From: Gemmatimonadota bacterium
Lineage (GTDB): Bacteria; Gemmatimonadota; Gemmatimonadetes; Gemmatimonadales; GWC2-71-9
Direction of reading: 5' to 3'
Length of the DNA: 64,000 nt
NCBI GenBank assembly: GCA_016209985.1
Contig: JACQVB010000022.1
Span: 1,664-65,663, forward strand
Below are positions 19,944-43,935 of this stretch, piece after piece. Position 1 is the stretch's first letter. Each line of letters opens with the position of its first letter. Position numbers and translations under genes: made by a program. The notes beneath the pieces were generated by a model. It worked only from the letters and a program-made list of their open reading frames with translations. It was not told where the DNA came from and did no database searches.

Positions 19944-20027
19944 GAGCAGGTGGTCGGTGGGACGGGGACCGAGGGGGTGCGTCATGGGCAAGAAAATGGG
20001 ATTTGGCGGGGGCGGCGTCCAGCGCCG
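19944..20027. repeat. Direct repeat copy A (~85 bp): second copy of the sigma-factor 5' region
   Basis: By-eye alignment to 22438-22520 gives roughly 85% identity. On the minus strand it encodes MTHPLGPRPTDHLL. Confidence 0.7.
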
Positions 20028-20044
20028 CCGATGCTTCAGCCCGC

Positions 20045-21955: not shown

Positions 21956-21969
21956 GAAAGTGCTACTTT

Positions 21970-22059
21970 AGTCAATAAGTTATCGTACATATTAACCATA
22001 GTAGCATATCCGTCAAGGCCTCAATGCTAGTTGGGTCAACAAGTACACAGACTTATTGA
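21970..22059. promoter_or_regulatory. AT-rich leader with three GTCAAYAAGT motifs (candidate operator) upstream of the hipA-like gene
   Basis: gtcaataagt at 21970-21979, gtcaacaagt at 22034-22043, and inverted acttattgac at 22050-22059. The latter two form a 10-6-10 inverted repeat. Confidence 0.4.
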
Positions 22060-22080
22060 CCAAAATCGCACTTTACCTCT

Positions 22081-22480
22081 CTATGGTCTCGAGTGCGGTG
22101 TCACCGGGATCGGGAACCTGGAGTCCGGCGTGCTTCGCACCAGCCTGAACCGTTCGGTGTCCATCGTGGAAGATCCCTCGATCCCCAGCATCGTGATCTT
22201 CTTCTTTTCGAACCGGGTGAGCGCCACGTTCCTGGCGATTTTCGCGAGCCACGCGCCGAAGGAGAACCGGGGATCGTACTTGACAAGAGCGCGGTGGGCG
22301 CGGCGGAAGGTTTCCTGCGCCGCGGAGTCGGCGACATCCCACTGACCGACGATGCGCATCACCAGCTCGATCTGTTCGTGGTAGCGGTCGTAGAGCTTGC
22401 GAAACGCGAGCTCATCGTCCTGCAGCGCCAGTTTGACGAGCTGCTGGTCGGTCGGACGCGGACCAAGGGGGGTGCGTCAC
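22081..22480 (-). pseudogene. ECF sigma-70 family gene, frameshifted near the start and lacking region 4
   Basis: ..TDQQLVKLALQDDELAFRKLYDRYHEQI...AQETFRRAHRALVKYDPRFSFGAWLAKIARN is sigma region 2. The GTG at 22480 is out of frame because of a G6 run (22467-22472), where repeat copy A has G5. The ORF ends at the AT-rich junction with no region 4. Confidence 0.65.
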
Positions 22481-22520
22481 GGGCAGAAAACGGGATGTGG
22501 CGGGGCCCGCGTCCAGCACA
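22438..22520. repeat. Direct repeat copy B (~85 bp), the native 5' end of the sigma-factor gene
   Basis: Aligns with 19944-20027. Confidence 0.7.
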
Positions 22521-22598
22521 GCACCCCCAATTCGCTCGCGTTCGTGATGCCGATGTATCGCCTCGAGGTAGGCGAAGAGCTTTCCCTGGGAATACCTG

Positions 22599-23738
22599 CT
22601 AATCATTCTCCTCTGGCCAGGACGCCGGCAGGCCAAGCACTTCGCCTGGACTTCTTCCAGCCGCGACCCTCAGGTGCCCATCAACCACCCTACTGAAGTC
22701 GAAGGGTAACACTCCATCAGGCAGCTCTTTCTTTGCCCAGGGATTGAGGAATACCGCTATCCTGCTCCGGCTGACGCTCCAGGGTTGGACCGAGGTGACG
22801 AGAACTGCGCTTATGCGGGTGTTTATCGGGCCAGTACTACCCATGAAGAAGCCATCGCGCGCGCGGCTCGGGCGCCCCTCTCTGGTGTCAACGTCAATAA
22901 CAACTTGCTCAGACCCGAACAGCGCCCCGATCACGTCATCACGGTCAGCCCCCCATTTTGTCTGAGTGTTGATGGCCAAGACGACAGGAACCTCGGCAGG
23001 ACCGAACTTCTTTGCCTTCTCCGCAAGACGGTCGCGGATGGACTCCTGGTCGCGAACCAAGCCTCCTGCTACTGGGTAGATGCCGATGGAGCGGACGCCC
23101 GGCTTCCCCCGCGCAGCATTCTTGGGAATGGGCCGAATGACGAGCCGGACCCTTTGGTCTTCCAAGACCCACTTGGGCAGGGTCTCGAGGTCACATTGCT
23201 GAAGTTCGGCGAGGCTCTCGTAGTCCGCCATCTCTATCTGGCTTGTGACGAACTGAGTAATCGCCCGGATGGACGGCTGCTGTGGACCCTTGATCTCGAA
23301 TTCGACTACTTCGAGGAAGTAGTCCGGTGAGGGGACCTGATTGATCGCATCCAAGATGGCGCCGACCATTGCCCTCCTGCCACGGTCCGCGTGCGACGCT
23401 CCACCCACGACTGACGCCTCGACTAGGAACTCGCTCTCGCCGCAACAGCCGAAATCGGGGCGCCCGCCCGCACGTTCAGGCTCAACTTCTGGAGCAAGTC
23501 TCAGGACATGGAATAGTTCGTGGAGGTAGAGCTCGAAAAAGGCTGATGAGAAATCATCGGCCACCATTCTCCGCAACAGCGCCGACTGTTTCGATGCGGG
23601 GTAGCGGTCGAACCAGCTCTGGAGCTCACGCCTGATCGCTTCGCAGCCGGGCTTGGCGCAACGGTCAAGGAATGCGTACGTCGATTCGGTGTGTCTGCTG
23701 GGGCTTGGGTCTGTCCTTGGAACGGCAGAGAAGAGCAT
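22599..23738 (-). CDS. Hypothetical protein (380 aa), last gene of the fic-hsdM-hsdS operon
   Basis: ATG at 23738 lies 13 nt after the hsdS stop. No Walker motif. Contains RPDF-x10-LVEAS, weakly reminiscent of a PD-(D/E)xK core. No family recognised. Confidence 0.6.
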   Translation of the reverse strand: MLFSAVPRTDPSPSRHTESTYAFLDRCAKPGCEAIRRELQSWFDRYPASKQSALLRRMVADDFSSAFFELYLHELFHVLRLAPEVEPERAGGRPDFGCCGESEFLVEASVVGGASHADRGRRAMVGAILDAINQVPSPDYFLEVVEFEIKGPQQPSIRAITQFVTSQIEMADYESLAELQQCDLETLPKWVLEDQRVRLVIRPIPKNAARGKPGVRSIGIYPVAGGLVRDQESIRDRLAEKAKKFGPAEVPVVLAINTQTKWGADRDDVIGALFGSEQVVIDVDTREGRPSRARDGFFMGSTGPINTRISAVLVTSVQPWSVSRSRIAVFLNPWAKKELPDGVLPFDFSRVVDGHLRVAAGRSPGEVLGLPASWPEEND

Positions 23739-23751
23739 AAGCACGAGAGAA

Positions 23752-24885
23752 TCAGACCCCAAACGCCCGCTGCGCCAGCGAGTCGAAGAGCTGATCAGCG
23801 GACTCCTCAGCGCCCCTGAGCTCGGAGCGCGTTTTCTCGCACGCTCGCACAATGTCTGAAAATCGCTTCTGGAGTCGGAGCGGGGGAACTGGTATCCGAA
23901 CTTCTCTGGCACTCCCGATATTGAAATGAGTCTGCACAGCACCGGTGGAGCCAGCAATGGAGTCTGCGTCCCCTAGGCGAGTGTTAAGAACCTCGCAAAG
24001 GTACTGCGGTTCGATTCGAGTGCCGCACGTCATCACGATTAGGTCTGCACAGTTTGCTTCCTTCAATGATTCCGGAATCACTGCAGTGACGCCCGGCGCG
24101 CCCGTTCTAACCGACACCACGTCATTGGGCAGTAATCGAGACTTGGAAATGCTTGCGTGGAACTCTGGCGAGACAAACATCAACTCGTCGAGTTGAATGC
24201 GCCCCCGTCTAACGTTCAATGACCGAAGCATTGACACACCTGTAGACTGATACTTATCGGTGAGAGGCCCTACAAATCCGACCGTTACTCTTGAGCAAAG
24301 GTTCCCCAGTAGGTCGGTTCCCCATTCCCTTTCATTCTTCACCGGATCCCCAAACATCTCCAAGAACTCCGAGCGCAAGAAATCATCCAGCAACCCCAGG
24401 CTCTCCCGCCGCTTCCGCCGCACCGCATCCGCCTTGCCCAATACCGCCGCGATCCGCTGCTGCTCGGCGAGGGGCGGAAGGGCGAGTGGCAAAGACTCCA
24501 CGGCCTCTCGCGTCACCTGCTTGAATGTCGATCCCCGCGCGCGACCTTCAAGAGTCGACCTGACTGAGGCAAGCCAGTGCCACAAGTAACCCTTGTCCAG
24601 ACGGGCAGTATGCACCCTCAATGCAGCCACTCCACGCCCCAGACAATACCGACGATCAGACCAGTTTCGCTCACCGACCGTCGCGCGAACGCACAGGAGG
24701 ATGTCGCCAACCTCGGACATCCTGCTCGGTTGCGTTGTAAAGCGCTTGGGCTGCGGCTCCAAGGTTCCAAAATCACCGGCGCCGGCAAGGAGCGGGAAAC
24801 CGTCGCCCGAAGAGTTGTAAGACTCACCTGGGGGTGCTTGGCCCATCACGACGTCGCAAACGGCCCCGAGCGTCGCCACGTTCAC
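23752..24885 (-). CDS. hsdS: Type I restriction-modification specificity subunit
   Basis: Two target-recognition halves, each followed by a conserved helix (LPPLAEQQRIAAVLGKAD..., PVPPLRLQKRFSDIV...). Overlaps the hsdM stop. Confidence 0.9.
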   Translation of the reverse strand: MNVATLGAVCDVVMGQAPPGESYNSSGDGFPLLAGAGDFGTLEPQPKRFTTQPSRMSEVGDILLCVRATVGERNWSDRRYCLGRGVAALRVHTARLDKGYLWHWLASVRSTLEGRARGSTFKQVTREAVESLPLALPPLAEQQRIAAVLGKADAVRRKRRESLGLLDDFLRSEFLEMFGDPVKNEREWGTDLLGNLCSRVTVGFVGPLTDKYQSTGVSMLRSLNVRRGRIQLDELMFVSPEFHASISKSRLLPNDVVSVRTGAPGVTAVIPESLKEANCADLIVMTCGTRIEPQYLCEVLNTRLGDADSIAGSTGAVQTHFNIGSAREVRIPVPPLRLQKRFSDIVRACEKTRSELRGAEESADQLFDSLAQRAFGV

Positions 24886-26435
24886 CGCAGCAACTCCTCC
24901 AGAGTGTCCAAGTCCCCCCTTATCTGCCCTTCTGTTTCTCTGAGTCTCTTGAGGATCTCGCTAGGTGGTTCGTGCTTGGATTCCGCGTAGGCCGTCTCTT
25001 TGTACCGATTGATCGCCAGGTCGTATTTGTTCTCCCGAATCTCCTCCACCGGCACAAAAAAGGCCTTCTCTGTCCGGTCCGTATCCCCCTTTGGATCCCT
25101 CGCCTTCCACCTCGCAATCACATCCGGAATATCATTCTCGGCCACCTTCTCCCGCTTGTCGTCCAGCGAGTAGCCGTCGGCCTGCATGTCGTAGTACCAG
25201 ACGCGCTCAGTCTTGCCGCCTTTGACGAAGATCAGCGCCGCGGTGCTCACGCCGGCGTAGGGCTTGAACACGCCCGCCGGCATCTTCACGATGCCCTGAA
25301 GCTCGCACTCCTCGATCAGCATCTTCCGCAGGTCCCGACGCGCATTGCTCGAACCGAACAGCACCCCGTCCGGCACGATTACGCCGGCCCGTCCGCCGAG
25401 GCGCAACAGATTGATCATCCGGTTCACAAACAGCAGCTCCGTCTTGGTCGTCTTGAGCCGCAAGTCCTCGTTGAGGTCACCCTTGTCGATGCTGCCTTTG
25501 AAGGGCGGATTCGCGAGGACGACGTCGTAGCGGTCCTTTTCGGTGTAGCTCTTGGAGAGCGTATCCTTGTAGCCAAGCTGCGGGTGGTCGATGCCATGGA
25601 GCAGGAGGTTCATCAGGCCGATCCGCACCATCGTGGTGTCGAAGTCGTAACCGAAAAACGTCTGCTCCTTGAGCGCCTTCCATTGCCGCGGGTCGCCGAG
25701 GTTGTCTCCCACCAGACCCCGTTCGATCCCGTCCTCGCCCATGAAGCGATGCCCCTTGCTGGTGTGCTGGGTGAGGATGTGCTGAAAGGCTCCGAGCAGA
25801 AATCCCCCGGTGCCGCAGGCCGGATCGCAGATCCCCTCTCCCAGCCTGGGGTCAACCAGCGAGACGATCATCTGAATGATGTGCCTCGGCGTGCGGAACT
25901 GGCCGTTCTTCCCGGCCGAAGCGATTTCGGAGAGCAGGTGTTCGTAGAGATCACCCTGGACATCCTGGAACCCCTGCCCCGCCTGCTGCTCCCGCTCGAT
26001 CTCGGCGTAGATCTCGTCAATGATTCCGACCGCCTCGACCAGCAGCGACGCCTTGGGGATGATGAAAACGGCATCCTGCATGTACTGCGTGAATATCTGG
26101 CCGCCGTTCTTGAGGGTCTTGATGAACGGAAAGACGTTGTCGCGGACGTGGTCCAGCATTTCCTCGGCGGGCAGGTGGCGAAACTTGCCCCAGCGCAGCT
26201 CCTCGCGCGAACGCCTGGCACCTTTCCTGGTCTCGTATTTCCCGGCGAAGAGGGACTTGAACTCTCTGCCCGTGAACTCGGCGTCCCCTCGTTCCTTCTC
26301 ATCGAGCGCGTCCAGCCGGCGCATGAAGAGGAGATAGCTGATCTGCTCGATGGCGGTGAGCGGATTGGCGATGCCACCGGACCAGAACTTGTCCCATAGC
26401 GCATCGGTTCTTGACCGCAGGATTCCGCTCAGCAT
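24882..26435 (-). CDS. hsdM: Type I restriction-modification N6-adenine DNA methyltransferase subunit
   Basis: N-terminal HsdM_N-like region, SAM motif DPACGTGGFL, catalytic motif NPPF. Confidence 0.9.
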   Translation of the reverse strand: MLSGILRSRTDALWDKFWSGGIANPLTAIEQISYLLFMRRLDALDEKERGDAEFTGREFKSLFAGKYETRKGARRSREELRWGKFRHLPAEEMLDHVRDNVFPFIKTLKNGGQIFTQYMQDAVFIIPKASLLVEAVGIIDEIYAEIEREQQAGQGFQDVQGDLYEHLLSEIASAGKNGQFRTPRHIIQMIVSLVDPRLGEGICDPACGTGGFLLGAFQHILTQHTSKGHRFMGEDGIERGLVGDNLGDPRQWKALKEQTFFGYDFDTTMVRIGLMNLLLHGIDHPQLGYKDTLSKSYTEKDRYDVVLANPPFKGSIDKGDLNEDLRLKTTKTELLFVNRMINLLRLGGRAGVIVPDGVLFGSSNARRDLRKMLIEECELQGIVKMPAGVFKPYAGVSTAALIFVKGGKTERVWYYDMQADGYSLDDKREKVAENDIPDVIARWKARDPKGDTDRTEKAFFVPVEEIRENKYDLAINRYKETAYAESKHEPPSEILKRLRETEGQIRGDLDTLEELLR

Positions 26436-26445
26436 CCGATCTCCT

Positions 26446-27495
26446 TCAAGCCTTTACCGGTACCCATTTGGCTCCTGGACCTCGCCCGAGCTGCTGAAGC
26501 TGGCCTGCGTTCCTCAATCCGCGGAGGACGCGGCGCACCATTTCCCGGCTCACGCCGGGACATTCCGCCTCGATGTCAGCGATGCCAAACGCGCGGGTGC
26601 GACGGGCCACCGCTTGCTCCACCAGATCGGTTTTGGCCCCGCGGCCCGCTCGAATCGTGCCGACTCTGGCTTCGAACTCCTTGTACGCGGCGAGCACCAC
26701 CCCCCAGAAATACGTGATCCAGGGAATCACATCGTGTCGGCCCTGATGCCACCCAACCGAGCTGGCTTCTAGGGTCTCGTAGTAGCTCTCCTTCGACTCC
26801 TCGAAGATGCGCTCGAGACTGATGTAGCGCCCCACCTCGTACTGAAAGTGGTAGAGCAACAGGAGGGTCAGCAGCCGAGCCATCCGGCCGTTCCCATCAC
26901 TGAAGGGGTGAATGCACAGGAAGTCGAGCACGGCGAGCGGGACCAGGACCAGCGGCTCACGGTTCCGGTCCAGCGCCCGGGCGTAGCGCTCCACCAATTG
27001 CTCCATCGCGCCCGGAGTGGAGACCGGTGCTACCGGCGTGAAACGAATCCGGTGCAACGATCCATCCGGCGTTCGCTCCACAATCTCGTTTTGCGTGCTC
27101 TTCCACCGCCCGCCGGGAGTGGGGAGGTAGCGATAGAGGAGTTGATGGAGTTGCAAAACCACGTTGATACTGAAATGCATGTCGCCATGGGCTTCATGGA
27201 TCAGGACAAGGGCATCGCGATACCCCGCGATCTCCTGCTCCGAACGATTGGCGGCCGCCGTGGGCTTCTTGACCACCGCTTCCACCCGATCCCGTGGCGC
27301 CGTGACACCCTCCAGCCGATTGGAGGACTCGGCGGATTCAACGATCGCGCGCTCGAGGAGTCCGGACAGCACGTCCGGGGTTTGCTTCCGGAAAAGCTCC
27401 TGCTTACCCCGGAACTCCCGCAACGCGCCGAGCGTGGAGGCGTGGTCGGCGGTTAACCGGAGACCATCGAGATATGAATCCGCCAGCGAGTGCAT
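26446..27495 (-). CDS. fic: Fic/DOC family protein with intrinsic inhibitory motif and C-terminal winged-helix-like tail
   Basis: Fic motif HPFSDGNGRMAR. N-terminal SNRLEG fits the (S/T)xxxE(G/N) inhibitory helix. The C-terminal ..REMVRRVLRGLRNAGQLQQLGRGPGAKW looks HTH-like. Confidence 0.9.
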   Translation of the reverse strand: MHSLADSYLDGLRLTADHASTLGALREFRGKQELFRKQTPDVLSGLLERAIVESAESSNRLEGVTAPRDRVEAVVKKPTAAANRSEQEIAGYRDALVLIHEAHGDMHFSINVVLQLHQLLYRYLPTPGGRWKSTQNEIVERTPDGSLHRIRFTPVAPVSTPGAMEQLVERYARALDRNREPLVLVPLAVLDFLCIHPFSDGNGRMARLLTLLLLYHFQYEVGRYISLERIFEESKESYYETLEASSVGWHQGRHDVIPWITYFWGVVLAAYKEFEARVGTIRAGRGAKTDLVEQAVARRTRAFGIADIEAECPGVSREMVRRVLRGLRNAGQLQQLGRGPGAKWVPVKA

Positions 27496-27530
27496 CAGTA
27501 CGACTCAGAACAAAAAGGGGTAATGAAGTA

Positions 27531-27584
27531 TAATAGTGGTAATAACATCGCATTATTACCACTATTCGTCAAACTATTACCACT
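27531..27584. promoter_or_regulatory. Candidate operator/promoter upstream of fic: 14-bp perfect inverted repeat plus a third half-site
   Basis: aatagtggtaataa-N8-ttattaccactatt, then actattaccact 7 nt further. The segment is AT-rich and lies 36-90 nt upstream of the fic ATG. Confidence 0.45.
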
Positions 27585-27586
27585 TC

Positions 27587-28197
27587 TCACGCCACCAGCC
27601 GGCCGGTGAATCTCAGGATGTCTTCGATGTCGGAGGCCGAGAAGAGGCCTCGTGCCCCCTTGGGATGAAGCTGGGTGAACGGCGGGTCAACCAGGTTCTT
27701 CCGGTTTACCTCGCCTCTCTGGAGCAGGAACGTTCGCAGGGTTTGGAGAAAGCGGAGCTGGAGCGAGGAATAGTTCGAGTGCTCAGCCATGAAGCCCTCG
27801 AACTCGCGCGTCACGAAGGTTGACCACCGTTCCAGCGGCTGCACGCCCCGGACGTGCCTGATGAGCTGGACGAAGCTCGCCTGGCGAACGTCGTAGACCT
27901 TCGGGCAACCAGGTTCACACCCAACGGCAATTCGGAGACTTGTTCGACGATGGAAAGGCGGAGCGCTTCGACGGCGTCGCGATTCGCGGCCAGCAGTGCC
28001 GTTCCCAGCTCCACGATGTCGGTTTCGAAGCGTAGGGCCTTGAAATCCGCGTCCGACTTGGCCCGCATGATCGGCGCGATGGTCTGGCGGAGAAGTGCCA
28101 GATCACGGCGCCTAAGGCGGGACCAGAAACCATCCTCGCGGGCGACCGCCAAGTCGCCCTGTCGTTCCAGGAAGCAGCACGAGGAAAGGCCCGACAC
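27587..28197 (-). pseudogene. hsdR: C-terminal remnant of the type I restriction subunit HsdR (EcoEI_R_C-like), also frameshifted
   Basis: Two ORF pieces in different frames. ..LRQTIAPIMRAKSDADFKALRFETDIVELG.. and ..SSLQLRFLQTLRTFLLQRGEVNRKNLVDPPFTQLHPKGARGLF.. match the HsdR C-terminal domain pattern. The helicase and nuclease parts are absent. Confidence 0.7.
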
Positions 28198-28549
28198 TGC
28201 AGAGGAAAATGTGAAATTCGAGCCAGTACTTGAGCTTGCCTGCCCCCCGCAGGAGGTGCAGTCGCTTGCGTACGCTATAGAGGAAAACGCCGGCGATGAT
28301 CAGCGAGGTTCCGATGATGCCGTAGCGGAGACCGAACGTGCCGGCCGGCCGGAACCGGGCGTACATGGGCGAAAACGGCCGCTGATCCAGCGGAAGCAGG
28401 TAATACTCGATGCCCAAGCCGAGACCGAAGCCTGCGAGCGCGAGGCCCAGCGAGATGAGCACGATTCGAAAGATCCGTCCGCTGGCCCTGGGGGAAGGCG
28501 GCTCAACCCCGCTGGGCAACTCGATTGGTGAAGCGGCCGGTGAGGGCAC
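28112..28549 (-). pseudogene. Membrane protein gene, apparently 3'-truncated where it abuts the hsdR remnant
   Basis: Three predicted TM helices end in ..KYWLEFHIFLCSVGPFLVLL (about 28172). The frame then runs into hsdR-derived sequence and stops. Confidence 0.45.
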
Positions 28550-28726
28550 GGACTCCTACGGAGACGGGGACGCGGCAATTTGCACTTGGAGTGCTGTAAC
28601 TTGCGTCACTTTCTACTACGGCCCGAATCTGTTTGTGCCCTCGTAAAGCCAAGTCTAAACACGGGTTAAGAGAACTTCTGGTGGACGATCGTCGCCGCGG
28701 CGCGGCGCCCAAAACCTGCCAGCGGC

Positions 28727-30646
28727 TTGACGGGTCCGACGACACGCCGTTACCCTCAGCGCCCCGTGACTCTCCGACCATCCCAAGCCAATAGCACGCC
28801 GCGGCGCCTCGGCGTGCTGACCCTGGCTGCCATTGGCGTCGTCTATGGTGACATCGGCACTAGTCCGCTTTACGCCATTCGCGAGTGCTTCTTCGGGCCG
28901 CACGCCGTAGCGCCGACTCCGCAAAATGTGCTCGGCGTCCTTTCGCTCATCGTCTGGTCACTGATCATCGTGATCTCGGTCAAGTACCTGGTGTTTGTCA
29001 TGCGGGCGGACAACCGGGGAGAAGGCGGCATCCTCGCCCTGATGGCGCTGGTCGGTCCCGAGCGCCGGATACGCGGCCGCCGGATGCTGGTTACCCTCGG
29101 CCTCTTTGGCGCGGCGCTGCTCTATGGCGACGGAATGCTTACTCCCACCATCTCGGTGCTCAGCGCGGTCGAAGGTCTCAACGTCGCGACCCCGGTGTTT
29201 TCCCGCTACGTCATCCCCATCACGATCGGTATTCTGGTGGCCCTGTTTTCGATCCAGCACCGGGGCACCGGAAAGGTGGGCGCGCTGTTCGGGCCGGTCA
29301 TGGTACTGTGGTTCTTCACCATCGGCATCCTCGGCCTGAAGGAGATTTTTCGCGCTCCCGGGGTCCTGGCTGCCATCGCACCGTGGCACGCCGTGGATTT
29401 CTTCCTGCAGAACCGATGGCACGGCTACGTGGTGCTCGGCGCGGTTTTTCTGGTCGTCACCGGCGGTGAAGCGCTCTATGCCGACATGGGCCACTTCGGG
29501 CCCCGGCCGATTCGCCGCGCCTGGTTTGGTTTGGCACTTCCCGCGCTGCTCCTCAATTACTTCGGGCAGGGCGGGCTGCTCATGAATGCTCCCGATGCCG
29601 CGGTCAACCCGTTCTATCACCTGGCCCCCGACTGGATGCTGTATCCGCTGGTCATTCTTGCGACCAGCGCGGCGGTGATCGCGTCGCAGGCGGTGATATC
29701 CGGGGCGTTCTCGCTCACCAGGCAGGCGGTCCAGCTCGGGTACAGCCCGCGAGTCGAGGTCGACCACACCTCTTCGGAAGAGATCGGCCAGATCTACATC
29801 CCGGGGGTGAACTGGGGACTCATGCTCTCCACCATCGGGCTGGTGCTCGGATTCAAGACGTCCAGCGCCCTGGCCGGCGCTTACGGAGTCGCCGTCGCGA
29901 CCACGATGGTCATTACGACCCTCCTGGCCTATGTGGTGGCGCGGGAGCTGTGGGGTTGGAAATCGTGGATGGCGGCGAGCGTGCTGGGCGGCTTTCTGAT
30001 AGTCGACCTTGCCTTTTTCGGCGCGAACATCCTCAAGGTGTGGCAAGGCGGCTGGTTCCCGTTGGTCGTGGCCCTGGCGATCTACACGCTGATGACCACC
30101 TGGAAAACCGGCCGTCGCATCCTGGCCTCGCGGCTACGGGCCGGCCTGGCGCTCGAGCAATTCCTGGCGGGAGTGGGCCCCAACACGCTTCGGGTGCCCG
30201 GCGTTGCGGTCTTCATGACCCAGGCGCCCGCCGGCACGCCGGTCACCCTGCTCCACAATCTCAAGCACAACAAGGTGCTGCATGAGACCGTCGTGCTGCT
30301 CACCATTCTGGGCGAGGAAGTCCCGCACGTTGCCACTACCGCACGCATGAAGTTCGAGGATCTCGGCAAGGGCTTCTACCGCATTATCGGGCGCTACGGT
30401 TTCATGGAAGACCCGAATGTCCCCGAGCTGCTGGGGCTGGCTCGCCAGTTCGGGCTCGATTGCAAGCCGCTGGAGACCACTTATTTTCTCGGCCGGGAAA
30501 CGCTGATCCCCACCAAGAAGCCGGGCATGGCCATCTGGCGGGAACACATCTTCGCGTTCATGGCCCGGAATGCGCATCGGGCGACGGCGTATTTCCGGAT
30601 CCCCCCGAATCGGGTGGTGGAGCTGGGAGCGCAGGTGGAGCTCTGA
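28727..30646 (+). CDS. kup: KUP-family potassium uptake transporter
   Basis: VYGDIGTSPLY near the N-terminus, ~12 hydrophobic segments and a C-terminal cytoplasmic domain. TTG start uncertain. Confidence 0.9.
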   Translation: MTGPTTRRYPQRPVTLRPSQANSTPRRLGVLTLAAIGVVYGDIGTSPLYAIRECFFGPHAVAPTPQNVLGVLSLIVWSLIIVISVKYLVFVMRADNRGEGGILALMALVGPERRIRGRRMLVTLGLFGAALLYGDGMLTPTISVLSAVEGLNVATPVFSRYVIPITIGILVALFSIQHRGTGKVGALFGPVMVLWFFTIGILGLKEIFRAPGVLAAIAPWHAVDFFLQNRWHGYVVLGAVFLVVTGGEALYADMGHFGPRPIRRAWFGLALPALLLNYFGQGGLLMNAPDAAVNPFYHLAPDWMLYPLVILATSAAVIASQAVISGAFSLTRQAVQLGYSPRVEVDHTSSEEIGQIYIPGVNWGLMLSTIGLVLGFKTSSALAGAYGVAVATTMVITTLLAYVVARELWGWKSWMAASVLGGFLIVDLAFFGANILKVWQGGWFPLVVALAIYTLMTTWKTGRRILASRLRAGLALEQFLAGVGPNTLRVPGVAVFMTQAPAGTPVTLLHNLKHNKVLHETVVLLTILGEEVPHVATTARMKFEDLGKGFYRIIGRYGFMEDPNVPELLGLARQFGLDCKPLETTYFLGRETLIPTKKPGMAIWREHIFAFMARNAHRATAYFRIPPNRVVELGAQVEL

Positions 30647-36586: not shown

Positions 36587-38686
36587 ATGCGGGTGTACCC
36601 AGGACAAGCGATTCGGAATGTGGCCGTACTCGGCCACGGCGCGAGCGGAAAAACCACCCTGGTAGATGCTCTCGCGTTCGTGGCCGGCTCGAGCAAGCGA
36701 CATGGTTCCGTAAAAGACGGAACCGCCCTCACAGACTACACCCCGGACGAGATCGAACGACAATACTCCATCAATCTGGCGCTCGCCCACGCGGAATGGA
36801 TGGACGCCAAGATCAACCTCATCGATACGCCCGGCTATCTCGACTTTGCCGGTGAGGCGCTGGCCGGCGTCTACGCCGCCGACGCCGCCTTGATCGTGGT
36901 GAGTGCCACCGGCGGCGTGGAAGTCGGTACCGAGCAGGTCTTCGAGTTTGCCGAACAGCGTGGCATCCCCCGGATGTTCTTCGTGTCGCTGATGGACAAG
37001 GAGCACGCCGATTTCGACCGCGTGTTCAACGACATCGCGGAGCATCTGACGCCAAAGGTGATCCCCATCGAGATCCCGGTCGGCGATGGCCCGGACTTCC
37101 ACGGGATCGTCAACCTGTTCTCCAAGAAAGCGCATCTCTACAAGAAGGGGACCAAGGCGGGCGAGTACGAGGAAGTCGATGTCCCGCCAGAATACGTCGA
37201 GCGGTTCGAGCAGTATTCCCAGAAGCTGCTCGAGGCCATCGCGACGACCGACGACGCTCTCCTGGAGCGCTATCTCAACGGCGAGGAGATCAGCCGCGAT
37301 GAGACGCTGGCCGCCATGAAGGCCGGCATGGCCAAAGGCGAGCTGTGCCCGCTGCTCTGCGGATCCGCCGAGCTGACCTACGGGATGCAGGCCCTGCTCT
37401 CCAAACTGGTGGAGCTGGTCCCGTCCCCCACGGAGCGCCCGCCGGTCGAGGGGAAGACCTGGGGTGAGGCCCAGCCCATCACGCTGACCGCCCAGGACGA
37501 CGGTCCCTTCGTGGCGCACGTATTCAAGACCGTGTCCGAACCGCACGTGGGAGACGTCACGTTTTTCCGGATCGTTTCCGGCTCGATCAACAACGGCACG
37601 GATGTATTCAACGCGCCTCGTGACTCGGTCGAGAAGCTCAACCACCTTTCGGTGTCCCAAGGCAAGGACCGGACCGAAGCCCCGATGCTGCATGCCGGGG
37701 ACATCGGATGTGTCGCCAAACTGCGGAATACCCACACCAACGACACGCTCTCGACCAAGGCGGTGCCGGTCGTCCTGCCCAGGATCCCGTTCCAGGAACC
37801 GGTGATCACGTTGTCGATCGAGGTGAAGCAACGCGGGGAAGAGGACAAGCTCTCCACCGGTCTCCAGAAGCTGCATGAGGAAGACCCTACCTTCCATCAC
37901 GAGTACAACGGCGAGCTGGGTCAGACACTGATCCGGGGCCGCGGCGAGCGGCACCTGGAGATTCTGGTCGGCCGGCTGGCGAGGAAGTTCGGGGTCCATG
38001 CTACGCTCGGGAAACCCAAGGTTGCGTATCGCGAGACGCTCAGGGGGAAAGCCGAGGGCCAAGGGAAGCACAAGAAACAGAGCGGCGGGCGGGGCCAATT
38101 CGGCGATTGCTGGATCCGGCTCGCCCCGCTCCCCCGCGGGTCAGGTTTCGTGTTTGACGATCAAATCGTGGGTGGGGTGATTCCCCGCCAATACATCCCG
38201 GCCGTGGAACGAGGCATTGTGGAAGCCGCGGCGCGAGGCTCGATCGCCGGCTTCCCCATGGTCGACTTCAAGGCCGAGCTGTTCGACGGCTCCTACCACG
38301 ACGTGGATTCAAACGAAATGTCGTTCAAGATGGCGGGGATTCTGGCGTTCCGGAACGTGGCGCCCAACGCCCGGCCGGTGCTCCTGGAGCCGATCGAAGA
38401 AGTGGAAGCGTGGACCCCGGAGGAATACCTCGGCGCCGTCATGGGAGACCTATCCGCTCGCCGCGGGCAGATCCTGGGCAGCGAGCGCGACGGCCGCCTT
38501 ACCAAGGTCAAAGCGCTGGTCCCTGAGGCGGAGCTGGACCGGTACGCCACCCAACTCCACTCACTCACCCACGGCCGGGGAACCTACCGGCAGAAATTCC
38601 ACGCCTACCAGGAGACACCGCCGGAAGTGACCGCCAAGGTGGTGGAGGCGCACAAGAAGGAGCTGGAGGCGGCGGAGAAGAAGTAG
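36587..38686 (+). CDS. Elongation factor G paralogue (EF-G-like GTPase)
   Basis: G-domain AVLGHGASGKTT, DTPGYLDF and SLMDKE, plus EF-G domains II-V. It is not in an rpsL-rpsG-fusA-tuf context. Confidence 0.85.
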   Translation: MRVYPGQAIRNVAVLGHGASGKTTLVDALAFVAGSSKRHGSVKDGTALTDYTPDEIERQYSINLALAHAEWMDAKINLIDTPGYLDFAGEALAGVYAADAALIVVSATGGVEVGTEQVFEFAEQRGIPRMFFVSLMDKEHADFDRVFNDIAEHLTPKVIPIEIPVGDGPDFHGIVNLFSKKAHLYKKGTKAGEYEEVDVPPEYVERFEQYSQKLLEAIATTDDALLERYLNGEEISRDETLAAMKAGMAKGELCPLLCGSAELTYGMQALLSKLVELVPSPTERPPVEGKTWGEAQPITLTAQDDGPFVAHVFKTVSEPHVGDVTFFRIVSGSINNGTDVFNAPRDSVEKLNHLSVSQGKDRTEAPMLHAGDIGCVAKLRNTHTNDTLSTKAVPVVLPRIPFQEPVITLSIEVKQRGEEDKLSTGLQKLHEEDPTFHHEYNGELGQTLIRGRGERHLEILVGRLARKFGVHATLGKPKVAYRETLRGKAEGQGKHKKQSGGRGQFGDCWIRLAPLPRGSGFVFDDQIVGGVIPRQYIPAVERGIVEAAARGSIAGFPMVDFKAELFDGSYHDVDSNEMSFKMAGILAFRNVAPNARPVLLEPIEEVEAWTPEEYLGAVMGDLSARRGQILGSERDGRLTKVKALVPEAELDRYATQLHSLTHGRGTYRQKFHAYQETPPEVTAKVVEAHKKELEAAEKK

Positions 38687-38776
38687 GCGGGTCGGCGGGT
38701 CGCGTTCCCGATTGAATGCATGCAAACGGCGCGGAGAATGAACCCCGCGCCGTTTCTGCCACCCGCCGACCCGCCT
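38683..38776. repeat. Nested hairpin: outer GGCGGGTC-unit arms enclosing a GC hairpin (likely bidirectional terminator, 38723-38753)
   Basis: taggcgggtcggcgggt ... acccgccgacccgccta. The inner hairpin is aaacggcgcgg-N9-ccgcgccgttt. It lies between convergent genes. Confidence 0.7.
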
Positions 38777-39947
38777 ATTTCTTTCGCTTCCCGTTTTTCT
38801 TCCCGTTCCCGTTCTTCCCGGGTTCCATCTCGAAGCTCGGCAGGAATCCGTATTCGGGCTCGTGCACGCCGGCGCCGACCAGGGCTTCTTCGGTGCGGGG
38901 CTGCTTCCAGACGTAGCGCTTGCCGCGGAAATTCCGCATCACGACCTGCTCGTCGGTAATCTCCTCGACATACTCGGGGAGCAGCGGGATCTTGCCGCCG
39001 CCGCCCGGCGCGTCGATCACGAAGTGCGGGACCGCCAGCCCGCTGGTCCAGCCTCGCAGGCCCTTGACGATTTCCAGGCCGGTCTCGACCGCCGTGCGGA
39101 AGTGCTCGGTGCCCGCCACCTGGTCGCACATGTAGATGTAGTAGGGGCGGACCCGCGCGGTCAGCAGCTTCTGCATCAGCTTCTTCATCACCTTGACATC
39201 GTCATTCACGCCCTTGAGCAGCACGGTCTGGCAGCCGAGCGGAATCCCGGCGTCGGCCAGCATTCCCAGGCCCTTGACCGCGGCGGGGGTGAGCTCGTCC
39301 GGGTGATTGAAATGTGTGTTGATGTAGAAGGGGTGGTACTTCTTCAGGATCGCGCACAGCTCCGGCGTGATCCGCTCGGGAAGATGGCATGGCACGCGAG
39401 TCCCGATCCGGATCACCTCGAGGTGCGGAATCTGCCGCAGGCGGCCGATGATCTGATCCAGCCGCCGGTCCGAGAGTAGCAGCGGATCGCCCCCGGACAT
39501 GATCACGTCACGGATTTTGGTGTGGCGCTCCAGATACTGGAACGCGCTCTCGAACTGCGACATGGGAATCTTCTCGGGGTCGCCGACCTTGCGCCGGCGG
39601 GTGCAGAACCGGCAATAGGCGGCGCACACCGGGCTCACCAGGAACAGCGCCCGGTCGGGATAGCGATGAGTGATGTTGGGGACCGGGCTGTCGGCGTCTT
39701 CGTTGAGGCTGTCGACGATGCCGTCCACTACTTCCAGCTCCTGCAGATCCGGGACGTATTGCCGCCAAATCGGGTCACCCGGTTCCTTGATCAGGTCCAC
39801 CATCGCCGGAGAAATCCGGAACTCGAAGTTGTCCGCGGCCTGCTGGAGCCGCTCGAGGTCGGGAAAGTGTTCCGCTCCGAACCGGTCGACCAGCTGCTGG
39901 AGCGAACGAACGCTTCGCTCGTGCAGGAGTTTCTGCCAGTCAGTCAT
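38775..39947 (-). CDS. kamA: KamA-family radical SAM lysine 2,3-aminomutase
   Basis: CAAYCRFCTRR radical-SAM cluster and overall KamA-like sequence. ATG at 39947 (MTDWQKLL). Lys-rich C-terminal tail. Confidence 0.85.
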   Translation of the reverse strand: MTDWQKLLHERSVRSLQQLVDRFGAEHFPDLERLQQAADNFEFRISPAMVDLIKEPGDPIWRQYVPDLQELEVVDGIVDSLNEDADSPVPNITHRYPDRALFLVSPVCAAYCRFCTRRRKVGDPEKIPMSQFESAFQYLERHTKIRDVIMSGGDPLLLSDRRLDQIIGRLRQIPHLEVIRIGTRVPCHLPERITPELCAILKKYHPFYINTHFNHPDELTPAAVKGLGMLADAGIPLGCQTVLLKGVNDDVKVMKKLMQKLLTARVRPYYIYMCDQVAGTEHFRTAVETGLEIVKGLRGWTSGLAVPHFVIDAPGGGGKIPLLPEYVEEITDEQVVMRNFRGKRYVWKQPRTEEALVGAGVHEPEYGFLPSFEMEPGKNGNGKKNGKRKK

Positions 39948-40458
39948 TCGCAATCTCCCTTGGGGGACCGAGGCGTTTGATGTAGACCACGAGGTCGTCA
40001 TTGGGCGCGTAGAAATCCGGCACTCGCGCCGCTACCTCATAGTTCAAGGCCTCGTAGAACGCGCGGGTGGGGTCGTAATCGCCCCGGGATGAGGTCTCGG
40101 CGACGATCAGTCGCCCGCCTTCGCCCGCGATACGCTGCTCCGTCCACTGTGCCAGCTTCCGGCCGACGCCCTGACGATGGGCGCCGGGGTCTACCGCGAT
40201 CCAATAGAGATCCCAGGTACCGACCGTGCACGGCGTCGGGCCGTAGCACGCAAAACCCAGCAGATTGCCTTCTTCGTCGAACGCGCCGAGCGGGGTGTAA
40301 TCCGTGCCCGGCGCCAGCGCGGCGCTCTCGAACACTTCCTCGGCGATCTCCACCTCTTCCGGGCGGAAGAGGCCGGTGGCCTCCACGATCTCGCGGGCCC
40401 GCGCGCGATGTTCGGGGCCGGGGATGCGCAACGTCACTATCCCGGGTTTCACCGTCAT
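39940..40458 (-). CDS. Small GNAT-family acyltransferase
   Basis: 172 aa. Acetyl-CoA motif HRQGVGRKL. 8-nt overlap with kamA and ATGA overlap with the upstream gene. Confidence 0.8.
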   Translation of the reverse strand: MTVKPGIVTLRIPGPEHRARAREIVEATGLFRPEEVEIAEEVFESAALAPGTDYTPLGAFDEEGNLLGFACYGPTPCTVGTWDLYWIAVDPGAHRQGVGRKLAQWTEQRIAGEGGRLIVAETSSRGDYDPTRAFYEALNYEVAARVPDFYAPNDDLVVYIKRLGPPREIAND

Positions 40459-41468
40459 CCCGTTTTCCTGGCCCTGGCTGGGGCCGCCAGCCGTTCCACC
40501 GAGCGCTTGCCGTGCGCCGCGGCGGTGGCGTGGTCGACGATCCGCATCACCAGCTCGGGGTACGACCATCCCTTGGAGCTGGCCATGGCCGACAACCCGG
40601 CGTCGTCCGAGATGTCCGGATTGGGATTGACCTCGAGGATCCAGGGCTGGCCGGAAGGGTCCACCCGGAGATCCACCCGGCCGTAACCGCAACCGCCTAC
40701 CGCTCGCCAGGCGGCTTCCGCGATCGCAATGATCCGCTTCTCGAGATCGCGATCCACCTTGGCGGGACACACCGGCCGGCTGCCTACGTCCTCGGCGCAG
40801 CCCTTTTCCCACTTGGCCGCGAACGAAAGAATCCGCCAGCTGCCTTTGGGCATGTGGCCGAAGTCGATCTCGGAGATGGGCAGTGTGGTGTGGCCCACGA
40901 AGCCCACCGCGAACTCGCGCCCGTCCACGTACTCCTGGACCAGCACTTCTTCGAAGGCCTCGCTTTGCTGGGCGATTCGCGCCTCCAGCTCGGCCCTGTT
41001 CTTCACCACCGACGACTGCTCGATTCCGACGCTGGCGTCTTCGGACGAAGGCTTCACGATGGCCGGCAGGGGAAAGTCACGGGGCACCTTGTGACCGCGG
41101 GGGACCACCCAGCGCGGAATGGGCAGGCCGGCGGATTCGAGCAGCGCGTTCACCACCGACTTGTTATGGCAGACGGTGATGGTCCACGCCCTCGCTCCGG
41201 TCGCCGGAATCCCGGCCAGCTCGATGGTCGCCGCGACCAGGTCTTCCCACTTCCCGATCCCGTTGATGCCTTCGCAGAGATTGAAAATGAGATCGGCCGC
41301 GCGGGCCGCGCCCAGCCAGCGCAGATCATGTCGCACGCCGACGCGGGAGACCTCGTGACCGGCGGCGGAGAGGATTTGAGCGATTTCGTTGACCGGCTTC
41401 ATGACCGAGGAGATTTCCTCCGCGGTCCAATCGGTCGCCACGCCGTCGTAGAGGATGACGACTCTCAG
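40455..41468 (-). CDS. ATP-grasp ligase, D-Ala-D-Ala-ligase-like (start probably CTG 41468; first ATG is 41402)
   Basis: Ddl-like pattern (PAIVKPSSEDASVGI, EEVLVQEYVDGREF, LEVNPNPD). A conserved-looking first strand RVVILYDG lies upstream of the first ATG. Confidence 0.7.
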   Translation of the reverse strand: MRVVILYDGVATDWTAEEISSVMKPVNEIAQILSAAGHEVSRVGVRHDLRWLGAARAADLIFNLCEGINGIGKWEDLVAATIELAGIPATGARAWTITVCHNKSVVNALLESAGLPIPRWVVPRGHKVPRDFPLPAIVKPSSEDASVGIEQSSVVKNRAELEARIAQQSEAFEEVLVQEYVDGREFAVGFVGHTTLPISEIDFGHMPKGSWRILSFAAKWEKGCAEDVGSRPVCPAKVDRDLEKRIIAIAEAAWRAVGGCGYGRVDLRVDPSGQPWILEVNPNPDISDDAGLSAMASSKGWSYPELVMRIVDHATAAAHGKRSVERLAAPARARKTG

Positions 41469-42550
41469 CGTGCCGCCCCGGCCAGGCCAACTGGCACCTT
41501 CAGGTCTCGTCCGGTGAGCCGCCGCCAGGCGATGCGGACGACCCCATGGATCAGCTCGTCGTACGACATCCCGGCAGCAGCGGCGGCACGGGGGAAGCAG
41601 CTGTTCTCGGCCAGGTTCGGAATGATTCCCGGAAGCGGATTGATTTCGACCACGTGCGGAACGCAGGCGTGGTCCAACCGGATATCGACCCGCCCCCAAT
41701 CCCGGCATCCCAGGGCCCGATAGGCGGACACCGCGGTGGCGCGGATGGCCTGCTCGGTCGGGGATGAGATGTCGGCCGGACACTCCAGCACTTCCATGGG
41801 TGTCTCCGGACGGTCCCACACCCACTTGGCCTCGTATCCCATTACCGGCAGCGCCCCCCCAGGAAGCTGGTCGAACCGGTAGCGGATGATCGGCAACACG
41901 CTGATTTCGGCTCCGTTCCCCATGATCGAGACCGTGAACTCCTCGCCTGGCAGGTACGACTCGGCCAGCACCGGTTGCCGGTAGGCCTCCAGCAAGAATT
42001 CGGCCCGTTCCACCGCCGCGTCCGGAGTTTCGGCGTAATTCGCCTGGCTGATTCCCTTGGACGACCCCTCCCACACCGGTTTCAGGAACACGGGATAGAT
42101 CTTGGCGCGCTTGAGGACCGGCAGATCGGCCGCCGACTCGACCAGGACGAACGGAGCGGTGGGGATGCGACGGTGAGAAAGGACTTCCTTGGTCCGGGCC
42201 TTATGGAGCGCCAGCGCCAGCGTCAGCGGATCACTGCCGGTGTAGCGGACGCCGAGAAACTCGGCAACCGCCGGCACGTGCGCCTCGCGGCACGGGCCGC
42301 TGCTTCCCTCCGCCATGTTGAAGAGAAGATCGGGTCGCGTGAGCGCGAGCGCGGCCGGGAAATCATCCAGTGCTTCGAGGAGAACGACGTCACCGAAGGC
42401 GCGGAGCGCATCGGCCACCGCTTGAATGGTGGTCGGATCGTCCCACTCCACGTACGCGTCGTCAGTACTGGGAGGGTCTCTTGGATCGGGGAGCTTGTTC
42501 TCCGCCGAAATCGCGTCTGGACGTTGGTTGTATGCGAGCCCGAGGCGCAT
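41465..42550 (-). CDS. ATP-grasp ligase, D-Ala-D-Ala-ligase-like
   Basis: VFLKPVWEGSSKGI, LAESYLPGEEFTV, VVEINPLPG. Confidence 0.8.
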   Translation of the reverse strand: MRLGLAYNQRPDAISAENKLPDPRDPPSTDDAYVEWDDPTTIQAVADALRAFGDVVLLEALDDFPAALALTRPDLLFNMAEGSSGPCREAHVPAVAEFLGVRYTGSDPLTLALALHKARTKEVLSHRRIPTAPFVLVESAADLPVLKRAKIYPVFLKPVWEGSSKGISQANYAETPDAAVERAEFLLEAYRQPVLAESYLPGEEFTVSIMGNGAEISVLPIIRYRFDQLPGGALPVMGYEAKWVWDRPETPMEVLECPADISSPTEQAIRATAVSAYRALGCRDWGRVDIRLDHACVPHVVEINPLPGIIPNLAENSCFPRAAAAAGMSYDELIHGVVRIAWRRLTGRDLKVPVGLAGAAR

Positions 42551-42581
42551 CGAACTCCGTATCGGAGTTATCGTTGCGCAA

Positions 42582-42611
42582 CAGAATAAGAAAAGATGAA
42601 TGGATATGCAA
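42582..42611 (-). promoter_or_regulatory. Candidate sigma70-like promoter for the ATP-grasp/GNAT/kamA operon
   Basis: On the minus strand: TTGCAT, 18 nt, TATTCT, in a locally AT-rich 100-bp gap after folA. Confidence 0.3.
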
Positions 42612-42652
42612 TAGACTTTTTCGGTTTACTCGACGACCGAGGTTGGTGCGTC

Positions 42653-43144
42653 TCATTCCCTCACCCGCCCATAGCGCCGAAAACTGAATGGGTATGCATG
42701 TCGTTCGTCCACCGGATGCCGTTCTTCCTCGATCAGGGTCCATTCCGTCGGAGAAAACTCGGGAAAGTGCGCGTCACCGGCGATTGCGGCGTGCACCACA
42801 GTCAGGTAGATCCGGTCGGCCACCGGGAGCGCCTGCCGGTAGATGTCTTCGCCCCCCGCCACGAATACTTCCTTTTCCTGGCGGGTCAGTGCCAGGGCCT
42901 GTTCGAGGTCATGCACCACTTCGACCCCGGCGGATCGCCACTCGGCCAGCCGGGTGAGCACGATGTTGCGGCGCCGTGAGAGAGGTTTCCCGATCGTATC
43001 GAACGTTTTCCGGCCCATGATCACGCTGTGGCCGGTAGTGAGCGCCTTGAATCGCTTGATGTCCGCCGGCAGATGCCAGGGCAGCGTGTTGTTTCGCCCG
43101 ATGACCCGGTTTTCCGCCATCGCGGCAATGAGCGACAGAATCAG
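42653..43144 (-). CDS. folA: Dihydrofolate reductase (start probably CTG 43144 or ATT 43141; first ATG is 43120)
   Basis: [23 protein letters not shown]. The conserved N-terminal strand LILSLIAA lies upstream of the first ATG. Confidence 0.85.
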
Positions 43145-43935
43145 ACGGCGACCTTGGCGGGAATGTGGGGGTGAGGCTGGTAACCCTCCAGCTCGATATC
43201 CTCGAACCCGAAGTCGAAAATCGAGCGCACCCCGGAGTTCAGACGCACCACCGGGAGCGGTCTCGGCTCACGGGTCAATTGTAGTCGCGCCTGCTCCAGA
43301 TGGTTTACGTAGAGATGCGCATCCCCCAGCGTGTGGATGAACTCGCCGGGTTGCAGGCCGGTGACCTGGGCCATCATCACGGTCAGCAGCGCGTAGGACG
43401 CGATGTTGAACGGGACGCCGAGGAATACGTCGGCGCTTCTCTGATACATCTGACACGACAACCGGCCGTCCACGACGTAGAACTGGAAGAGCACGTGGCA
43501 AGGCGCCAGCGCCATGCGGGGGATGTCGGCGACGTTCCAGGCGCTCACCATCAGCCGCCGGGAGTCGGGCGCCGTCCTGATCTGCTCCACCACCGCGGCG
43601 ATCTGGTCGATATGGCTGCCGTCCGGCGCCGGCCAGTTGCGCCACTGAACGCCGTAGACCGGACCCAGCTCGCCGTTGAGGTCCGCCCACTCGTCCCAGA
43701 TCCTGACCCCGTGGTCCTTCAGGAACCGGGTGTTCCCTTCGCCTCGCAGGAACCACAGCAACTCATAGGCGATCGACTTGAAGTGGAGCTTCTTGGTCGT
43801 AAGCAAGGGAAATCCCTCGCTGAGATCGAAGCGGGACTGATACCCGAAGACGCTCAACGTCCCGGTGCCCGTGCGATCGTTTTTTGGGCGTCCGTGTTCC
43901 AGAATGTGGCGGAGCAGATTCAGATACTGCTTCAT
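43141..43935 (-). CDS. thyA: Thymidylate synthase
   Basis: [41 protein letters not shown]. The longer 655-aa ORF is an artefactual upstream extension. Confidence 0.95.

Follow-up and report, generated by a model that had tools for sequence, protein, structure and literature searches.

A conserved cluster of a KamA-family aminomutase, two ATP-grasp ligases and an acetyltransferase that probably makes an undescribed beta-lysine amide compound

Organization of the gene cluster

A 64,000-nt stretch of DNA from the metagenome-assembled genome of a Gemmatimonadota bacterium (contig JACQVB010000022.1, positions 1,664 to 65,663; hereafter the window) carries four tightly packed genes on its reverse strand. 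In order of transcription they encode AG1, a Ddl-like ATP-grasp ligase (42550..41465, 361 aa); AG2, a second Ddl-like ATP-grasp ligase (41468..40455, 337 aa); a GNAT N-acetyltransferase of the 2R7H family (40458..39940, 172 aa); and a KamA-family radical-SAM/pyridoxal phosphate (PLP) aminomutase (39947..38775, 390 aa). An earlier reading of this DNA, here called the original prediction, had proposed that these genes overlap by 4, 4 and 8 nt and form a pathway to a beta-lysine conjugate. The coordinates confirm the overlaps, and all four open reading frames (ORFs) are intact. The junction sequences are CTGA between AG1 and AG2, ATGA between AG2 and GNAT, and ATGACTGA between GNAT and KamA.

AG1, GNAT and KamA begin with ATG. 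The AG1/AG2 junction contains no ATG, GTG or TTG, and the first AG2 codon is CTG (41466-41468), which overlaps the AG1 stop codon (41465-41467). Four other Gemmatimonadota loci have CTGA (L001), ATGA (L082), TTGA (L083) or GTGA (L084) at this junction, and in these loci as in the window the AG2 peptide (L/M)R(V/I)xxLYDG is conserved from the junction codon onward. The conserved NTGA junction and the peptide that follows it indicate that the 4-nt overlap is real and that the AG2 start is non-canonical, most likely a CUG used by translational coupling. In L001 the gene caller had cut the AG2 protein back to a downstream ATG.

A 102-nt intergenic gap (42551..42652) separates AG1 from folA, the nearer gene of a thyA-folA pair (42653-43930) that lies upstream on the same strand. 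Its GC content is 45%, compared with 65% for the cluster, in agreement with the separate AT-rich, promoter-like gap that had been predicted. On the reverse strand the gap contains TTGCAT (42611..42606) and TATTCT (42588..42583) separated by a 17-nt spacer. An A-rich tract lies upstream of them, and GGAG, 4 nt ahead of the AG1 ATG, forms a ribosome-binding site. Comparison of loci revealed TTGCAT-17-TATCGT and GGAG again in L001, L082 and L084. A generic sigma-70 scan of the gap gave no match at its threshold, and the promoter and terminator scan was negative or at chance level; the conserved motif is regarded as a putative promoter. Because the gene upstream of the cassette in L001 (7224-7376) is thyX, whereas thyA-folA occupies that position in the window and in L082-L084, the cluster appears to have its own promoter.

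KamA resembles lysine 2,3-aminomutases

KamA has the Pfam domains Radical_SAM and LAM_C and matches the lysine 2,3-aminomutase (LAM) of Clostridium subterminale (PDB 2A5H) over residues 30-350 with an E value of 4e-112. It passes the family model TIGR00238 (287.9 bits, cut-off 199.2). The best specific model is TIGR03820 (KamA/AblA), with 436.8 bits against a cut-off of 525.4. KamA also scores under the cut-offs of the glutamate (388.8/650), arginine (320.6/600) and AblA-like-2 (322.7/396) models. An identical protein is annotated in the database as a "KamA family radical SAM protein" of a Gemmatimonadetes bacterium, and the closest match in the plasmid database is a Fusobacterium KamA with 50% identity.

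The window protein was aligned with 56 cassette-linked homologues using C. subterminale LAM numbering. C125, C129 and C132 of the CxxxCxxC iron-sulfur motif are invariant in 57/57 proteins, as are R134, D293, D330 and K337. In the C. subterminale enzyme we take R134 to contact the alpha-carboxylate, D293 and D330 the epsilon-ammonium group of lysine, and K337 the PLP; glutamate 2,3-aminomutases presumably have other residues in place of D293 and D330. The zinc-site cysteine C268 is not conserved: Asp takes its place in the window protein, and the cassette homologues have D, N or S there. Taken together, the match to 2A5H, the model scores and the invariant catalytic and lysine-binding residues lead us to predict that KamA is a lysine 2,3-aminomutase belonging to a sister lineage.

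A possible relationship to EpmB, which the original prediction had proposed to settle by phylogeny, was not borne out. KamA reaches only 231.7 bits with the EpmB model TIGR03821, whose cut-off is 369.3. In a neighbour-joining tree, calculated without support values, it falls in a group with the lysine 2,3-aminomutases of Clostridium, Fusobacterium and Bacillus, which are nested among the cassette KamAs. The Gemmatimonadota KamAs, which are 77-85% identical among loci, cluster with KamA-AG1 fusion proteins. E. coli EpmB, used as the outgroup, and a genX/efp-linked Sinorhizobium clade fall outside this group. In addition, tblastn found no match to EF-P, GenX/EpmA, AblB or HDAC homologues in the window, consistent with the predicted lack of an EpmA/LysRS-like gene.

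AG1 and AG2 retain Ddl catalytic residues and differ at substrate positions

Both ligases match Pfam Dala_Dala_lig_C (AG1, 4e-31; AG2, 1e-28), and the best solved-structure matches of both are all Ddl/Van enzymes. In the PDB, the AG1 matches at E <= 1e-3 are confined to Ddl/Van chains and a single L-amino-acid ligase, with no other ATP-grasp protein among them. Neither ligase reaches the cut-off of the Ddl model NF002378 (160.1 bits for AG1 and 140.6 for AG2, cut-off 243), and the score with Ddl model TIGR01205 is 126 bits against a cut-off of 245.65.

To compare active sites, 80 AG1 and 60 AG2 sequences were aligned and their residues mapped onto E. coli DdlB. The catalytic set K97, K144, E187, K215, R255, D257, E270 and N272 is invariant in 80/80 AG1 proteins. 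It is also invariant in the 60 AG2 proteins except at E270, where 51 have E and 9 have D. These residues bear out the description of the pair as Ddl-like ATP-grasp ligases, and since they are conserved, AG1 and AG2 are predicted to be active and should form amide bonds.

The substrate positions are altered in both families; the D-Ala-binding residues compared were H63, S150, Y216, S281 and L282. In AG1, H63 is replaced by E and E68 by R in 80/80 sequences, L282 by D in 78/80 (Glu in the window protein), and Y216 is variable. The N-terminal GGxSxExxVS region of Ddl is replaced by a YDLR...EFD motif. In AG2, Y216 is W in 60/60, S150 is A in 47/60 and L282 is G in 57/60. The extra acidic residues of AG1 would suit a cationic substrate such as a diamino acid.

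The acetyltransferase and an accessory GNAT-HDAC protein

The GNAT matches Pfam Acetyltransf_1 (2e-10) and the structural-genomics entry PDB 2R7H, a "putative D-alanine N-acetyltransferase" (E 2.8e-31). The corresponding GNAT of an Oleidesulfovibrio cassette (L058) is a near-orthologue of 2R7H (E 1.5e-74), whose source organism we take to be a Desulfovibrio. In the open-access literature 2R7H is cited as a structural neighbour only, and its name is only a guess based on context. As had been suspected, the GNAT is unlike AblB: the AblB model TIGR03827 is not among its NCBIfam matches at E <= 0.01, a BLAST comparison with Bacillus velezensis AblB gave E 0.19, and the protein is much shorter (172 vs 290 aa).

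A further gene accompanies the cassette in 13/57 loci and is the sole recurrent addition besides lineage-specific synteny. Its product has an N-terminal GNAT-like domain followed by Hist_deacetyl (E about 1e-72), and it is sometimes fused onto the cassette GNAT to give a GNAT-HDAC-GNAT protein. The gene was recorded in L007, L010, L018, L024, L034, L035, L037, L043, L050-L052, L054, L056, L058, L067 and L075. It follows AG2, or follows GNAT in L051 and L058. Known HDAC-type deacetylases act on N-acetyl-alkylamines, and by analogy such a deacetylase would fit reversible acetylation of an epsilon-amine.

Distribution of the cassette and fusion of its components

To examine conservation, one genome per species was scanned with an alignment of AG1-AG2 proteins, which identified at least 596 loci. 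Gene context was then counted in the 80 best of these wherever the contig extended far enough. KamA is the immediate upstream gene in 67/73 loci, 65/70 contain AG2, and in 46/57 a GNAT homologous to that of the window follows downstream, all on one strand. The record titles of these 80 loci name Desulfobacterota/Syntrophales, Planctomycetota, Bacteroidota, Ignavibacteriales, Spirochaetota, Omnitrophota, Lentisphaerae, Alphaproteobacteria, Acidobacteriota, Thermoanaerobaculia, Riflemargulisbacteria, Dependentiae, Neomarinimicrobiota and Bacillota, and the cassette occurs in more than 10 phyla. Within the Gemmatimonadota the order AG1-AG2-GNAT-KamA and the flanking genes are conserved, and outside the phylum the order is KamA-AG1-AG2-GNAT. 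Synteny inside one phylum says little about function; the unit is kept far beyond it.

Searches with KamA or GNAT as the query returned Gemmatimonadota only, and the wider spread came from a full-library representative search with AG1. That search recovered many two-domain proteins, namely AG-AG (AG1-AG2), KamA-AG1 and AG1-KamA. With a KamA-AG1 fusion as the query, about 100 of the best 120 matches hold both aminomutase and ligase domains, and many of them are labelled Thermoplasmatota, Methanocellales, Woesearchaeota or Nanoarchaeota. AG2-GNAT fusions occur in several loci. The components are thus linked pairwise by fusion: KamA to AG1, AG1 to AG2 and AG2 to GNAT.

Individual loci differ in how many components they retain. 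A Woesearchaeota locus (L090) encodes a KamA-AG1 fusion and AG2 beside MscL, Na/H, Na/Ca and CorA genes. A Methanocellales locus (L091) encodes KamA-AG1, AG2 and an unrelated GNAT (PseH/SpeG-like), and another archaeal cassette (L092) has KamA-AG1 with an AG2-GNAT fusion. The proteins encoded after the cassettes of L090 and L092 have no mutual homology. A Spirochaetales locus (L093) has the KamA-AG1 fusion alone, and a deltaproteobacterial locus (L094) has KamA-AG with two more Ddl-like ligases, three in all. The acetyltransferase of Archaea belongs to a different GNAT family, suggesting that acetylation is kept even where the gene has been replaced. Across the loci GNAT is missing most often, AG2 next and AG1 almost never. 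As judged by gene content, the invariant core is KamA plus AG1, and AG1 is the ligase that appears most tightly bound to KamA.

Solitary AG1-like genes with the YDLR...EFD N-terminus and no KamA, AG2 or GNAT nearby were seen in L062, L065, L073 and L078. Ligases of the AG1 type thus extend beyond the cassette and are not strictly tied to beta-lysine.

No EF-P homologue occurs in the 80 best loci, and no exporter, efp, peptide-precursor, regulator or tailoring gene is conserved in the cassette neighbourhoods. NCBIfam has no specific model for AG1, AG2, their fused forms or the GNAT-HDAC protein. The original prediction could not match the gene set to a characterised pathway; we likewise found no description of an aminomutase/ATP-grasp cassette in the open-access literature, to which the search was confined. 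Two Desulfovibrio regulon papers and a Pelobacter genome paper mention only the classical ablAB pair.

A proposed pathway to a beta-lysine amide

On balance, we favour the view that the four genes form one operon that makes a small beta-lysine amide compound inside the cell. This view is built on gene structure, family membership, co-occurrence, gene fusion and the conservation of catalytic and lysine-binding residues, and from the conserved residues in particular we infer that beta-lysine is the aminomutase product. The original prediction of a beta-lysine-containing (pseudo)peptide or N-acylated amide gains support from the two results on which it might have failed, since KamA does not group with EpmB and the gene set is conserved as a unit.

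In the proposed pathway, KamA would convert L-lysine to (3S)-beta-lysine by radical-SAM/PLP chemistry. AG1 would then use ATP to activate a carboxylate as an acyl-phosphate and form the first amide bond involving beta-lysine, a ligation that would pull the freely reversible mutase step forward and make it irreversible. AG2 would form a second amide bond, and GNAT would acetylate a free amine, for which the simplest candidate is the epsilon- or the beta-amine of beta-lysine. Both the gene order KamA-AG1-AG2-GNAT outside the Gemmatimonadota and the pattern of gene loss fit these steps. Other lineages, with one to three ligases, would form one to three amide bonds, with GNAT absent or swapped and GNAT-HDAC optional. 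Because GNAT can be absent or replaced and GNAT-HDAC is optional, the final acetylation is probably tunable or reversible.

Since the cassette contains no gene for another substrate, the ligation partners are probably common amino acids or metabolites, lysine or beta-lysine itself. The lack of a conserved exporter and the presence of the cassette in Woesearchaeota and Nanoarchaeota suggest that the product is cytoplasmic rather than secreted. It may resemble a compatible solute or a polyamine. Acetyl-beta-lysine and N-acetylglutaminylglutamine amide are the analogues that make a compatible-solute role plausible, though weakly supported. One archaeal locus, L090, adjoins MscL and ion exchangers, the only osmotic context of this kind.

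A more specific and rather doubtful version of this pathway is that the KamA-AG1 core dimerises beta-lysine to beta-lysyl-(beta-)lysine, much as Ddl joins two D-alanines or PylC joins methylornithine to lysine. Extra Ddl-like modules would then extend the product to short polycationic oligo-amides whose charge is tuned by GNAT and HDAC. If true, this would represent a previously unrecognised polyamine-like or compatible-solute class in many Bacteria and Archaea, including small-genome DPANN lineages.

Several observations weigh against a beta-lysine amide pathway. No chemistry has been observed, and the product is hypothetical. With KamA under the trusted cut-off of TIGR03820 (436.8 vs 525.4), another basic amino acid could be the substrate, and the cassette KamAs are not monophyletic in the neighbour-joining tree, which carries no support values. 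With ligases varying in number from 1 to 3 and GNAT absent in about one locus in five, the cassette may yield several related products instead of a single one. The solitary AG1-like genes count on the same side. Record titles point to peat, lake, groundwater, digester and marine habitats, a range that is not specifically saline, and osmotic-stress genes were not enriched when the neighbourhoods were clustered.

Alternative explanations

The ligases might instead attach beta-lysine to a lysine or carboxylate of a target protein, either as in EF-P beta-lysylation with an ATP-grasp enzyme in place of EpmA or as in RimK/LysX-type tailing, with GNAT and HDAC as writer and eraser. Other ATP-grasp families, among them RimK, LysX and the tubulin-tyrosine ligases, do act on proteins, and GNAT and HDAC pairs such as AcuA/AcuC regulate by lysine acetylation, which is of interest given the GNAT-HDAC gene in 13/57 loci. 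A cassette that lacks a further substrate-supplying gene would also be expected, and an EF-G paralogue is always the convergent neighbour in Gemmatimonadota. We nevertheless consider protein modification unlikely. Both ligases are Ddl-like, the class that acts on small molecules, and are not RimK-like or TTL-like; KamA lies outside the EpmB clade; neither efp, epmA nor any other candidate target is conserved beside the cassette in the window or the 80 loci; and the EF-G neighbour reflects the synteny of a single phylum. Simple synthesis of N-epsilon-acetyl-beta-lysine, an osmolyte, by AblA/AblB-like enzymes, with the ATP-grasp proteins as passengers or cell-wall Ddl paralogues, is quite improbable. 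KamA plus an acetyltransferase does match the known two-gene route (Pfluger et al. 2003, as cited in PMC3543383), a Bacillus ablB-ablA pair was directly observed in L087, and a gene for a Kup potassium transporter is found at a distance of about 8 kb. Passenger ligases would hardly be fused to KamA, as AG1 is in about 100 of the protein clusters listed, or to GNAT, as AG2 is in several loci, and KamA-AG1(-AG2) also occurs without GNAT. The GNAT itself is not AblB-like by model, E value or length, and both ligases fall short of the Ddl cut-offs and differ from Ddl at substrate positions. The altered substrate residues, the failed model cut-offs and the occurrence of the cassette in archaeal lineages, in which murein is absent, argue against a cell-wall Ddl role. 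The absence of murein in those lineages also makes the suggested cell-envelope (peptidoglycan) role of the product unlikely.

Beta-lysine is also found in antibiotics, namely streptothricins, viomycin/capreomycin and those of the negamycin type, and streptothricins can be inactivated by small GNATs: streptothricin acetyltransferases acetylate the beta-amine of beta-lysine. The cluster could by this token direct synthesis of a secreted, antibiotic- or siderophore-like beta-lysine pseudopeptide with GNAT conferring self-resistance, and the variation from one to three ligases does resemble the diversification of natural-product clusters. We give this little credence. An exporter, regulator or tailoring gene is not conserved with the cassette; synteny is fixed throughout the Gemmatimonadota, with KamA at least 77% identical among the homologues listed; and archaea labelled Woesearchaeota and Nanoarchaeota, groups noted for their very small genomes, also carry the cassette. 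GNAT did not match the streptothricin acetyltransferase model, and PADLOC found no defence-system match. Finally, KamA is the first enzyme of lysine fermentation in clostridia and fusobacteria, and its nearest plasmid-database match is the Fusobacterium KamA, so it could catalyse the first step of a catabolic beta-lysine pathway. This is very improbable indeed: kamDE, kdd, kce and kal are not among the conserved neighbour families, no genes resembling them were called around the cluster in the window or in the four other Gemmatimonadota loci, and two ATP-consuming ligases with an acetyltransferase point to biosynthesis.

Relationship to known systems

The enzyme families of the cassette are familiar; their combination is widespread and is not matched to a known pathway. 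AblA/AblB (KamA/YodP), found in methanogens and some Bacillus, is alike in coupling an aminomutase of the same broad clade with a GNAT. The cassette differs in adding two integral Ddl-like ligases, fused elsewhere to KamA and GNAT, in having a GNAT unrelated to AblB, and in having a KamA below the AblA equivalog cut-off. EpmB/EpmA likewise uses a KamA-family aminomutase to supply beta-lysine, which is joined through an amide to the epsilon-amine of a lysine in EF-P. The cassette KamA lies outside both the EpmB and the genX-linked clades, and its partner ligase is an ATP-grasp enzyme rather than a LysRS paralogue.

The closest mechanistic precedent for the KamA-AG1 core is the PylB/PylC pair of pyrrolysine biosynthesis, and the likeness is mechanistic only. 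The radical-SAM enzyme PylB isomerises L-lysine to 3-methyl-D-ornithine, whose carboxylate is linked by PylC, a Ddl-like ATP-grasp enzyme, to the N-epsilon of another lysine. PylB does not belong to the KamA/PLP enzymes and does not make beta-lysine. Furthermore, the cassette has a second ligase and an acetyltransferase, no PylD-like or third Pyl-like gene was seen among the window ORFs or in the 80 best loci, and AG1 matched no PylC chain in the PDB (E <= 1e-3), where PylC structures are presumably deposited. With Ddl/Van enzymes, their best matches in both sequence and structure, AG1 and AG2 share the residues for ATP, Mg and the transition state; they differ in scoring below all Ddl cut-offs, in their changed substrate positions and in belonging to a family that is also archaeal. 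In the Ngg/AsnO system, a fused GNAT and ATP-grasp ligase make an N-acetylated dipeptide, the cytoplasmic osmolyte N-acetylglutaminylglutamine amide. The AG2-GNAT fusions recall this arrangement, and the two systems are set apart by description in that Ngg/AsnO has other ATP-grasp and GNAT families, no aminomutase and a glutamine block.

To our knowledge, beta-lysine has so far been found in three settings: an acetylated osmolyte, the modification of EF-P and a few actinomycete antibiotics. The cassette probably makes an undescribed acetylated beta-lysine amide compound. If so, an ATP-grasp-dependent route would be the fourth and would define a new class of primary or stress metabolite, spread over Gemmatimonadota, Desulfobacterota, Planctomycetota, Thermoplasmatota and DPANN archaea. 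Hundreds of genes annotated "D-alanine--D-alanine ligase", and the orphan structure 2R7H, would thereby gain a function, and amide-forming enzymes for a beta-amino acid, of potential use in biocatalysis, would become available.

Flanking regions and other observations

Downstream of KamA, a long nested GC-rich hairpin (38688..38774; minimum free energy -61.5 kcal/mol) separates the cluster from the EF-G paralogue (36587-38686), which is the fixed convergent neighbour of the cassette in 5/5 Gemmatimonadota loci. The inner stem of the hairpin is AAACGGCGCGG/CCGCGCCGTTT, and the structure is a probable bidirectional terminator. Against Rfam, neither the window nor 13 related loci gave a match to a riboswitch or any other RNA family.

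About a dozen loci, including L051, L058 and others from Desulfobacterota, have a gene for a sigma-54 enhancer-binding response regulator immediately upstream of KamA, and about as many have sensor-kinase genes in their flanks. Canonical sigma-54 promoters of the form TGGCA(C/T)-N5-TTGCT precede KamA in L051 and L058. The pattern was found in 5/64 loci against a background of 2.4%, and such a promoter is at most specific to Desulfovibrionaceae.

A different arrangement was seen on plasmid pRlvC of Rhizobium leguminosarum UPM791 (L088), where a KamA-family gene of 374 aa directly follows a biotin-carboxylase-like ATP-grasp gene, with a Glu/Leu/Phe/Val dehydrogenase gene farther upstream and an M81 peptidase gene downstream. 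A 375-aa lysine 2,3-aminomutase of this strain (RLV_1884) is named among abundant pea-bacteroid proteins in one report (PMC7950203).

Elsewhere in the window, the region from about 20000 to 28600 has a lower GC content (58-62% vs about 66%) and encodes HipA, a Fic protein and the type I restriction-modification proteins HsdS and HsdM; it probably represents a mobile or defence island. The Kup potassium transporter gene follows this stretch at 28727-30646.

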